A stretch of DNA of 64,000 nt. Origin: Terriglobia bacterium (GTDB taxonomy: Bacteria > Acidobacteriota > Terriglobia > 2-12-FULL-54-10). Positions 24,379 to 46,387 of the stretch are shown here, piece by piece (position 1 is the stretch's first letter; every line of letters begins with the position of its first letter). The position numbers and the translations under genes are program-made. The notes beneath the pieces were generated by a model. That model searched no databases, was not told the origin of the DNA, and was given only the letters and a program-made list of their open reading frames with translations. The stretch lies in the NCBI GenBank assembly GCA_963666975.2, contig CAXVYR010000004.1, positions 64,001-128,000 of the forward strand, in the 5' to 3' direction.

Positions 24379-24424
24379 GCCATTTTCATAGTTGCTGCAT
24401 TTTCATGGTTGCTGCAAACCGTAT

Positions 24425-24497
24425 CCGAGCCGCGAGAGCCTGCCCCGCCTGTCCTGAGCATAGCCGAAGGGAGCAGAGTCGAGGGGTGAGGGAGCGG
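24425..24497. repeat. REP-like hairpin carrying a doubly nested 24-bp unit
   Basis: CCGAGCCGCGAGA-[48 bp]-GTGAGGGAGCGG versus empty CCGAGCCGCGACC-GTGAGGGAGCGG at about 42825-42849. Confidence 0.8.
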
Positions 24498-42739: not shown

Positions 42740-42878
42740 CTGGGAGATTTTTGAAAAACTGGTGTATGGGTCCGCTTGCTAACGCGCGCGGCTCGGCAAG
42801 TACAACCCAATCAGCACGCCCATTCCGAGCCGCGACCGTGAGGGAGCGGACAAATGTCGTTTTTCAACAACCTGCTAG
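42740..42878. mobile_element. MITE with ...GTTGAAAAA TIRs containing two REP-like hairpins (empty form)
   Basis: Degenerate left end, right end TTTTTCAACAACCTG-CTAG; reverse-complement homolog of 45936-46143. Confidence 0.75.
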
Positions 42879-42913: not shown

Positions 42914-43633
42914 GGGGCTGTCCTAGCTAAGGGTGATTCTGTCTCGATTTGATCCATGTCTTCAATTGGTTAAGCAGTGTCGGTGGTTACCGCCATTGAA
43001 GCGCCATTCGCACTCCTTCAGGAAGAGGTGAAAACTCTGTTTGGGCACCCCGTTGAAGCGCCGAAGATGCCGCTTTGCCTGGTTCCAGAAGTTCTCGATC
43101 CCATTGATGTGGTTCCGTTCGTCGACGAACCGTTCCGAGTGGTTGATCCGAACATGGTGGAAGTCCGACACATCCAGAGCATCGTAGCTCGAAAAGCCAT
43201 CCGTGTAGACGATGCTGTCGGGCTGGATCAGGCGCTCCATGATCGGCATCAACGTGTCCGTACGGGCATTGGGGATCATCACCGTGTAGACCCTTCCTCC
43301 ACGCTTCAAAAGCCCGAAAACCGGGACTTTCCCGCCAGCACCACGACCGCGCTTGCCCTTGCGGCGACCACCGAAGTAACTCTCGTCCACTTCGATTTCG
43401 CCGCAAACCGAAGAGGCTTTCTGGGTCTCCTCGGCAATCACCGTGCGAATCCGTGTATAGAACGAAGCGGCCGTGTTCCGATGAACCCCGACAAGCTCAG
43501 CCGCCGCCCGTGCCGTCGTCCCGGCAACGAAGTGCTCCACCAACCGATCCCGCTTCGCCTTGCTCAGCCGACTACGCCGTTCGTACATATCGCCATCCTA
43601 TCCCTAAGCAATCTGCTTAGCTAGGACAGCCCC
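42914..43633 (-). mobile_element. IS1595-family (IS1016-like) element, intact, 8-bp TSD
   Basis: TIR GGGGCTGTCCTAGCTA; TSD TTTTTTTA on both sides; transposase 42962-43588 with EVDESY, YTDG, HINGIENFW. Confidence 0.93.
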
Positions 43634-45721: not shown

Positions 45722-45935
45722 GGCATTTCTCCTTTGGGGTAATGAGCTTTCGATGCCATGTGTAACTAACCGCTGGCATCATAGCTTTTCGCTTCCCCTT
45801 GTTGCGCGTCATTTTGTTGCGCGTCACTGACTGGCAGGCTGTGGCGGGAGTTTCGCAGGCATGGAAGTCGGAATCCTGCACAGTGTTCATTGCAGACCGG
45901 CATTTCTTTATCTACATGCGATTGCTATTCCACTC

Positions 45936-46143
45936 CTAACAGGTTGTTGAAAAACACCATTTGCCCGCTCCCTCACGGTCGGGCTCGGAATCGGCGTGCT
46001 GATTTGTCTGCGCTTACCGAGCCGCGCGCCTGTCCCGCCTGCCCTGCCTGCCCTGAGCGAAGTCGAAGGGAGCGGAGTCGAAGTGAGCGAAGCCGAGGGA
46101 TTAGCAAGCGGACCCATACACCAGTTTTTCAACAACCTCTTAG
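45936..46143. mobile_element. MITE carrying a triply nested 24-bp unit in its second hairpin
   Basis: CTAA-CAGGTTGTTGAAAAA ... TTTTTCAACAACCTC-TTAG; insert at 46028-46099. Confidence 0.85.
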
Positions 46144-46387
46144 ATATGCCGCCCCAGGTATCGTCGTCAATGCCATGAAGTGGATTTTTTGAGTTCCGCC
46201 CGCCAGAATTATACGCCCCACTCTTTCATTGGGAACTAATTTCCATGCCCTTGCGCGGCTCTGCCGGAAAAAGGACCCGGGTAGCTCCCGCCACTATACT
46301 TCGATTACGCCTGCGATTACGGTGAGAGCGGTTGGAGGCCGATATGGCGTTGGGAATTATTTTCAGACAAGCTCTTCATGGTTCCGC

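Follow-up and report, generated by a model that had tools for sequence, protein, structure and literature searches.

How very small repeats, of the size of repetitive extragenic palindromes (REPs) and below, multiply is a long-standing question. The small dispersed repeats SDR1-8 of Nostoc and its relatives, reportedly described by Elhai et al. in 2008, are said to be gene-less dispersed sequences of 21-27 nt, some of which lie within copies of themselves. They reportedly have a common hairpin with compensatory changes, occur in minitransposons and in genes, and spread by an unknown mechanism; they are also said to be limited to one cyanobacterial subgroup. Here, we analysed a window of 64,000 nucleotides (positions 64,001-128,000 of contig CAXVYR010000004.1; G000:C4:64001-128000 in our numbering) from the genome of a Terriglobia bacterium, G000, which measures 4.23 Mb with 58% GC. 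Positions 46028-46099 of this window hold an array built from a 24-nt unit, GCCTGYCCY followed by GAGCGNAGYCGARGG, which comprises the 5-nt tag GCCTG, a 4-bp covarying stem and a 12-nt loop. We lean towards the reading that the array consists of three concentric copies of a gene-less 24-nt hairpin module in the apical loop of a REP, built by successive insertion into the loop. The unit is an unusually clean case of small-repeat multiplication, and its useful features are a fixed 24-nt quantum, exact filled and empty sites between congeners, and defined landing positions.

How does the unit compare with the described systems? By their reported features, the cyanobacterial SDRs appear to be the closest description. 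Like the SDRs as reportedly defined, the unit is very short (24 nt), dispersed, gene-less and nested, and it has a covarying hairpin (127/128 copies among the matches listed in a cross-phylum scan). In contrast, the SDRs are cyanobacterial, while the unit crosses phyla, is high in GC and has a core in common with the Ssn hairpins. Since Elhai et al. 2008 reportedly found repeats of 21-27 nt within copies of themselves, it is doubtful that ordered self-nesting is undescribed, as the first-pass annotation of the window, aware of no description, had suggested. Passages of a later paper place the insertion of SDR5 precisely between nt 3 and 4 of the HIP1 palindrome (Elhai 2015, PMC4390886).

The Ssn-related motifs (NTS, dRS3 and SRM) resemble the unit in being hairpins with an oriented 5′ tag and a wide spread among phyla, according to passages of PMC11893778. 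The unit has the same core, CCYGAGCG.AG.CGARGG, as the local Ssn hairpins, but GCCTG replaces their GTCAT and the 3′ ATCTG tail is absent. The available text of that paper uses the words nested, tandem and inserted 0 times, and describes no nesting or loop insertion. The host hairpins of the array, in turn, are 25-mers of the kind known as REPs, bacterial interspersed mosaic elements (BIMEs) and REP doublets forming hairpins (REPINs), with their REP-associated tyrosine transposases (RAYTs), as outlined in parts of PMC3116915 and PMC3733652. The unit has the same tag-plus-hairpin layout as these repeats, but it is only 24 nt long with a 4-bp stem, it is spread independently of both the REP family and Y1 genes, and it enters the loops of other repeats instead of standing beside genes. 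We rejected the unit as a REP/RAYT member, because it flanks no Y1 gene, is absent from the REP-rich genomes G012 and G013, and is present in G027, which is free of the REP 25-mer. It also departs from the SRMs, in that it begins with GCCTG, has no 3′ tail and flanks no ssn gene examined, and it was rejected as a miniature inverted-repeat transposable element (MITE), because its stem is only 4 bp, far short of terminal inverted repeats of 15-30 bp, and no target-site duplication exists beyond a 1-2-nt ambiguity. Among the main texts of the papers found, none prints the sequence of the unit and none describes REPs nested in loops. The unit is allied to REP-like, Ssn-like and SDR-like repeats.

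The array and its 24-nt unit

In the window, positions 46028-46054 are three 9-nt copies, GCCTGTCCC GCCTGCCCT GCCTGCCCT, and positions 46055-46099 are three 15-nt copies, GAGCGAAGTCGAAGG GAGCGGAGTCGAAGT GAGCGAAGCCGAGGG, all on the forward strand. The 9-nt copies are the 5′ halves of the outermost unit (A1, 46028-46036, stem TCCC), the middle unit (A2, 46037-46045, stem CCCT) and the innermost unit (A3, 46046-46054, stem CCCT). The 15-nt copies contain the loop and the 3′ stem, and follow in the reverse order. B3 of the innermost unit (46055-46069) equals the family consensus, B2 of the middle unit (46070-46084) ends in AGT and has one stem mismatch, and B1 of the outermost unit (46085-46099) has GAGGG + A, which pairs with TCCC. 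The first-pass annotation had read this layout correctly to the base. The stem covariation that it proposed holds for the outer CCC/GGG and inner CCT/AGG pairs, apart from the one mismatch at B2. Tandem Repeats Finder reports the region as two arrays, 46028-46055 (period 9, 3.1 copies) and 46055-46100 (period 15, 3.1 copies).

A hairpin loop encloses the array, which stands between CCGAGCCGCG (46017-46026) and ATTAGCAAGCGG (46100-46111). The host element has two REP hairpins, the second of which is of type Y; its 5′ tag and arm are formed by the former sequence, extended by a C to 46027, and its loop remnant and 3′ arm by the latter. The arms are separated by 73 nt, as compared to 3 nt in 147 empty copies. 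As the first-pass annotation had claimed, the same hairpin is empty in a sister element, where the 25-mer CCGAGCCGCGCGCGTTAGCAAGCGG occupies positions 42772-42796 (minus strand) with a 3-nt loop and no insert. The locus is present in six sequencing runs, and Logan unitigs from four runs of four studies match 45982-46052 and 46044-46114 with 0 differences and at the depth of the flanks. When alleles with one unit more or one unit less were sought in reads, none was assignable to the window locus; the contigs of X13, X14, X15 and X18 break inside the repeat, and the listed joints come from paralogues.

The host 25-mer, CCGAG-CCGCGNNN-GNNA-NNNAGCGG, has 144 copies in G000 at ≤1 mismatch (control, 0). 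A script found the 147 copies with a 3-nt spacer between the arms in G000, and the loop-closing pair covaries across the subtypes (CGC/GCA, ACC/GGG, ACA/TGG and ACT/AGG). Moreover, two of the three Y1_Tnp genes in G000, at C4:1459682-1459891 and C4:1943957-1944235, are flanked by inverted host 25-mers, and one of these two open frames matches PF01797. The copy number, the covarying subtypes and the Y1 genes flanked by inverted 25-mers therefore identify the host as a true REP with a RAYT: a short imperfect palindrome with many copies, inverted pairs and a flanked Y1 gene.

The first-pass annotation had taken A and B together as a discrete 24-nt unit, and exact 24-nt differences at two orthologous sites bear this out. 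At C2:118612 of G000, the unit stands in non-repeat DNA, and the orthologous site of genome G002 (flanks about 80% identical) is exactly 24 nt shorter. The target reads GAGCG|GAGG, and the boundary is ambiguous by GG. In an orthologous REP pair (1 kb, 81.5% identity), the unit is present in G001 and exactly 24 nt are missing in G000, with the insert between G10 and A11 of the REP. At a third locus, a G002 hairpin contains A2B2 and is empty in G000, with an untidy alignment. REP-plus-unit blocks also differ as wholes between genomes. In one further comparison (L181) both genomes contain the unit, which is old, and another query (L182) matched a repeated element only.

The 24-mer occurs in 46 copies in G000 at ≤2 mismatches (reversed control, 0), far above chance, and 71 copies of the unit were counted at ≤1 mismatch. 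Between the REP arms of G000, a spacing of 3 nt is the commonest (147 copies), and spacings of 27 nt (14 copies), 51 nt (12) and 75 nt (3) also occur. The spacings off the 24-nt step are 28 nt (5 copies, with the unit reversed), 60 nt (4) and 66 nt (4). A perfect 4-bp stem, of three types, is present in 25/40 strict single units. The hosts of the unit in G000 are the loops of RAYT-linked REPs, Ssn (GIY-YIG) hairpins and the unit itself, and it lands in the 5′ half of the loop, or at a G|A step, of these other hairpin repeats. The unit sits in either orientation, and the filled/empty pairs have no target duplication beyond the 1-2-nt ambiguity. The insertion points observed are CCY|GAGC, the position behind GAG(C), the position behind GAGCG (for Ssn hairpins, the third unit of locus L164 in G005, and the unique site C2:118612), the loops of REPs and the G|A step of the REP. 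With at least three positions seen, the fixed insertion position proposed by the first-pass annotation does not hold. The unit is a real, discrete and very small insertion module, and, with its almost unchanged occurrence in many bacterial phyla, its behaviour is that of one of the smallest known mobile elements.

Nesting order and distribution

A seed-and-extend census of the whole G000 genome yielded 110 seeds, and among the weaker single seeds some are chance matches. The numbers of A and B copies (n,m) were 1,1 in 68 cases; 1,2 in 1; 2,1 in 7; 2,2 in 14; 2,3 in 3; 3,1 in 2; 3,2 in 7; and 3,3 in 8. Across the 42 multi-unit arrays, which occupy at least six host contexts, there is a ceiling of three A and three B copies. 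The junctions in G000 are A-A in 45 cases, B-B in 34 and B-A in 0. Inner A copies end in CCCT in 51/58 and inner B copies in AAGG+G in 40/44, while the outer A copies (n=42) end in TCCC (22), CCCC (7) or CCCT (10) and the outer B copies (n=42) in AGGG+A (20) or AGGG+G (10). In the 22 arrays with n=m, concentric pairing yields 195/208 Watson-Crick pairs, as compared to 131/208 for same-order pairing. These junctions and pairs support the concentric self-nesting that had been claimed for the array, and the concentric order gives relative ages. In three-layer arrays, the mismatches to the inner consensus rise from the centre to the outside (0.5, 2.0 and 3.4). This agrees with the expectation that inner units are nearer to the consensus, in a weak and partly circular test, since the consensus is of the inner type and the arrays are related.

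Equal numbers of A and B copies, which the first-pass annotation had noted at both of its sites, do not hold as a rule: they are found in 22 of the 42 multi-unit arrays, while 18 are off by 1 and 2 are off by 2; n and m are correlated with a Spearman coefficient of 0.36 (P=0.02). All three A2B3 arrays have three differing B copies, which fits the loss of one of two identical A copies, and not the gain of a B copy. The unequal arrays look like the products of later slippage by 9 nt or 15 nt.

The unit is cross-phylum and not local. It is present in 13/41 relatives and in 41/151 genomes of the class (controls, 0), and the nested A-A-B junction is present in 18/301 genomes of the class, in three families (control matches, 0). 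An exact-pattern scan with one genome per species found at least 125 loci, as compared to the 4-45 loci, according to GC, that chance would yield in the whole collection. The matches listed fall mostly in Acidobacteriota, and further in Chloroflexota, Nitrospirota, Verrucomicrobiota, Planctomycetota, Bacteroidota, Patescibacteria, Proteobacteria and others. Among their sources are the isolates Edaphobacter aggregans, Aequorivita sinensis and Leeuwenhoekiella aestuarii. Among the 128 cross-phylum copies listed, the Y8-R21 stem pair is T-A in 114, C-G in 13 and C-A in 1, and the base before CCTG is G in 113. Most cross-phylum copies are single, and among the matches listed 17 follow a B-like sequence and 1 is nested. 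The first-pass annotation had set a predominance of tandem (AB)n against nesting. The B-A junction is absent from G000, and tandem (AB)n occurs elsewhere at three loci among the matches listed (L023, L049 and L072). A perfect stem of ≥6 bp stands beside 19/128 of the copies listed, as compared to 2.9% in the control; with so few flanking stems, the hairpin-loop context is not established for most copies outside this lineage. The cross-phylum near-identity of the unit suggests either that a conserved protein recognises it or that it is often transferred.

A variant in genome G220, which belongs to another family of the class, is nested two-deep (L177, G220:C97:4516-4756) and reads GCCTGCCCT twice and then GAGTTTTCGAAGG twice, with a loop of 13 nt in a unit of 22 nt.

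Candidate enzymes and rival explanations

Which enzyme could insert the unit? G000 encodes both candidate enzyme types, RAYT and Ssn, each with cognate hairpins. One intact gene for a 108-aa single-domain GIY-YIG protein (C3:816853-817176) and one broken paralogue are each flanked by inverted GTCATYCYGAGCG..CGARGGATCTGC hairpins (GTCAT..ATCTGC; loci L139:1440-1830, which is G000:C3:816799-817188, and L140:1380-1800). The hairpins of the intact gene, GTCATCCCGAGCG..CGAGGGATCTGC, have the core of the unit, and the 3′ hairpin of these small GIY-YIG genes encodes the C-terminal ..SLRSG. The nearest solved structure to the 108-aa protein is the UPF0213 protein 1zg2, and NCBIfam has no family for it. 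The flanked layout, which is alike in relatives, is the NTS-ssnA-NTS arrangement given in passages of PMC11893778. Units are often located in Ssn-type hairpins; in the broken paralogue, a 24-nt unit occupies the loop of the 5′ hairpin, an insert that is also found in the G002 orthologue. According to passages of Chenal et al. (2025, Nat Commun 16:2388, PMC11893778), such hairpins in single-stranded DNA are bound by Ssn enzymes, which cut the strand a few bases upstream of them, need no particular loop identity and tolerate loop extensions.

The first-pass annotation had also suggested a link to small GIY-YIG genes, which receives modest support from the shared core and from co-occurrence. Genomes with both the unit and an Ssn homologue, the unit only, the homologue only or neither number 9/4/6/22 among 41 genomes (odds ratio 8.3, Fisher P 0.005) and 19/22/21/89 among 151 genomes (odds ratio 3.7, Fisher P 0.0016). 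In both sets kin are counted as if independent, which they are not, and the unpublished genomes G080 and G099 are among those counted. An Ssn homologue is thus present in 19/41 genomes with the unit, as compared to 21/110 others. Families in which at least 30% of genomes have Ssn number five, and these same five make up the set in which at least 26% have the unit.

A second loop insert, CCTTCGGCGTTGCTCAGGG + TAAACTCCG, is found in Ssn-type hairpins of G000 (for example at C4:1844706, C4:1903814 and C2:217389). It is unit-like, reversed and has another tag, and suggests that further families of loop-inserting modules exist.

In the proposed course of events, every insertion would create a new apical loop of like kind, and repeated insertion would yield the A..A B..B order with the youngest unit in the centre. 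Slippage in the 9-nt and 15-nt runs may later add or drop a single A or B copy, so that n no longer equals m, and finished arrays may spread when whole host elements are copied. Our best guess for the catalyst would be the Ssn-type GIY-YIG nuclease of G000, which may cut single-stranded hairpin DNA, after which repair or replication would copy a unit in. We weakly favour an Ssn-type nuclease as the enzyme, whose own terminal hairpins have the core of the unit, and a RAYT is disfavoured. More widely, and only tentatively, the units may form a class of mobile modules of 24 nt that crosses phyla and has no smaller counterpart outside cyanobacteria. These modules would be written into hairpin loops of single-stranded DNA by a hairpin-specific enzyme, with the recently discovered Ssn nucleases together with host replication or repair as the lead candidate. 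As every insertion would recreate its own target, the arrays would then be ordered event records; the module can, moreover, enter essential genes in frame. We regard this wider proposal as possible rather than probable.

Several results weigh against successive loop insertion by such an enzyme. The contigs of four runs have the A3B3 form only, and no recent event was observed. By nearest-neighbour folding, the arrays are less stable than shuffles (z of +2.1 to +2.8 as DNA and +0.3 to +2.0 as RNA), and a single unit folds at only -1.7 kcal/mol. With these poor fold energies beside the stem covariation, the hairpin is supported by covariation and not by stability. The orientation of units relative to GC skew has no bias (38 vs 49, P=0.28). 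The excess of arrays with n=m is barely above expectation (22 vs 17.3 by permutation, P=0.066), and the layer test has the weakness given above. Moreover, 16/42 arrays share one host type, and 6/8 A3B3 arrays have one and the same middle B variant, GAGCATAGCCGAAGG. A large part of the arrays must therefore have been copied with one host element, and they are not the independent insertion records that had been supposed. As for the enzyme, the Ssn-like genes of G000, G002, G004, G006 and G013 have GTCAT-type hairpins on their flanks, and none of the Ssn genes examined is flanked by GCCTG-type units; a sixth locus, in G027, gave no open frame. In genomes with at least 15 units, 5/12 are without an Ssn homologue at E≤1e-15, including G138 (68 units, 100% complete). 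The unit is without the GTCWY tag, and both the unit and the local Ssn hairpins fail the SRM string HGTCWY..RNCYNB given in passages of PMC11893778. This string has only 33 matches in G000, which are unique and random-looking. Passages of the same paper present Ssn as a nuclease without a known joining activity.

Could the arrays arise without a dedicated enzyme? Template switching or gene conversion between related hairpin repeats might occur at stalled forks or nicks, where GAGCG.AG.CGA homology would guide the copy-choice and loops would be targeted because polymerases stall there. The unit, the Ssn hairpins and some targets have the GAGCG motif in common, the unique-site target being GAGCG|GAGG, and the inserts in the Ssn hairpin and at the third unit of L164 both follow GAGCG. 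The 1-2 nt ambiguity at every boundary, the varying insertion positions, and the three tandem (AB)n loci among the matches listed in other genomes also fit. However, the commonest hosts are REP loops (CGCG|TTAG, GCG|ACC and ACC|GTGA) without homology to the unit, one REP site has received both unit orientations, and this route leaves the first copy in each genome and the cross-phylum near-identity unexplained; we consider it unlikely. Neighbouring tandem repeats of 9 nt and 15 nt that slip independently would dispense with insertion altogether, as the two arrays of Tandem Repeats Finder, the n≠m counts in 20/42 arrays, the marginal excess of n=m over the permutation and the frequent identity of neighbouring inner A copies might suggest. 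As the sole process, this slippage is largely refuted by the subtype order, in which inner and outer copies differ on both sides at once, by the loop lengths, which favour full 24-nt steps, and by the exact 24-nt presence or absence at two orthologous sites, one of which had no prior repeat. The A2B3 arrays, whose B copies are as expected from a lost A and not from a gained B, and the occurrence of the entire unit alone in unrelated hosts and in other phyla, add to this, and an origin without insertion is very unlikely.

The first-pass annotation had named a HUH-type enzyme as a possible writer, and a RAYT/HUH tyrosine transposase could excise the 24-nt hairpin as single-stranded DNA and re-insert it in hairpin loops. 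The distribution of the genes stands against this: G012 and G013 have 180 and 161 REP 25-mers and 6 Y1 matches each but 0 units, G027 has 15-27 units but 0 REP 25-mers, and Y1_Tnp, with matches in 33/41 genomes, carries no signal. In addition, no Y1 gene in G000 is flanked by 24-nt units, and units have no strand bias relative to replication. HUH enzymes are nevertheless able to cut and rejoin single strands, the REPs that flank two of the three Y1_Tnp genes do host units, no target duplication is left, and REP and unit are alike in architecture (5′ tag, GC stem, G.A steps and a small purine loop). Taken together, we judge a RAYT as the writer quite unlikely. A small transcript that is reverse-transcribed into hairpin loops has the faintest prospects among the routes weighed here. 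RNA-mediated spread has reportedly been proposed for the cyanobacterial SDRs, the outer stem position tolerates T-G (a G.U wobble in RNA) in 24/128 copies among the matches listed, and the REP loops are GNRA-like. The one reverse transcriptase gene of G000 can be counted in its favour but is a weak basis, the RNA fold is no better than that of shuffles, and no Rfam family matches: searches of the whole window at the gathering score and of 45850-46250 at E≤10 returned only tRNA elsewhere and a sub-threshold CRISPR-DR match. Successive loop insertion thus remains the reading towards which we lean.

Host element, neighbouring features and the copy in nrdJ

The element that hosts the array is 208 bp long and ends in 20-nt terminal inverted repeats, whose arms are 95% complementary; the left arm is CTAACAGGTTGTTGAAAAAC at 45936-45955 and the right arm is at 46124-46143. 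Inside this element is an inverted pair of REPs. The first, of type X in the reverse orientation (45965-45988, minus strand, CCGCTCCCTCACGGTCGGGCTCGG), has no insert and is one base short, and the second is the type Y hairpin that contains the array. The element is an inverted REP pair with extra terminal repeats, REPIN/MITE-like in kind. The region is intergenic, with a thioesterase gene on one side and a CarboxypepD_reg gene on the other.

At the corresponding locus, G002 (G002:C302:5338-7640) has two genes where G000 has the 208-bp element; by eye, one of them resembles a metallo-beta-lactamase gene and the other a TolB/WD40 gene. The breakpoint coincides exactly with the left end of the G000 element, CTAA|. 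With these two other genes at the locus, G002 provides no clean empty site for the window element.

The sister element also has an empty type X REP hairpin, CCGAGCCGCGACCGTGAGGGAGCGG, at 42825-42849 on the forward strand (DNA fold -5.2 kcal/mol). Beside this element, a 208-aa open frame (42962-43588, minus strand) has an IS1595-family DDE transposase domain (PF12762, 1e-33), and is probably a fragment. Another array of the window, site 1, is a type X REP hairpin at 24425-24497 (forward strand) with two nested units, A2B2 at 24438-24485, and 51 nt between its arms. Directly upstream of the site 1 REP, at 24381-24416, is a 17-nt tandem duplication (CATTTTCATAGTTGCTG, 2.1 copies).

Small palindromic repeats able to sit in frame in protein genes are reportedly known as the Rickettsia palindromic elements, ascribed to Ogata et al. 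in 2000; they are reportedly 33-150 nt long and have another sequence than the 24-nt unit. The first-pass annotation had expected that insertion of the unit preserves the frame, and an in-frame copy was found in nrdJ, the gene of class II ribonucleotide reductase, which lies outside the window at G000:C3:225624-228632 (minus strand), with the unit at 226256-226279. For annotation, units give rise to small open frames that are spurious, and they can also make real proteins longer, of which the nrdJ linker is an example. Four repeat pieces lie in frame in this gene: the 5′ arm of a REP, a single 24-nt unit and two further hairpin repeats. The peptide reads ..GKGEQSRVSLSRAKPRDQGTASAVPILPTQEGALAPEG.. 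and is located in the linker between the barrel domain and the TSCPD domain. In relatives, the linkers differ and are variable in length, and that of G005, SRDREGAV, is a REP 25-mer read in frame.

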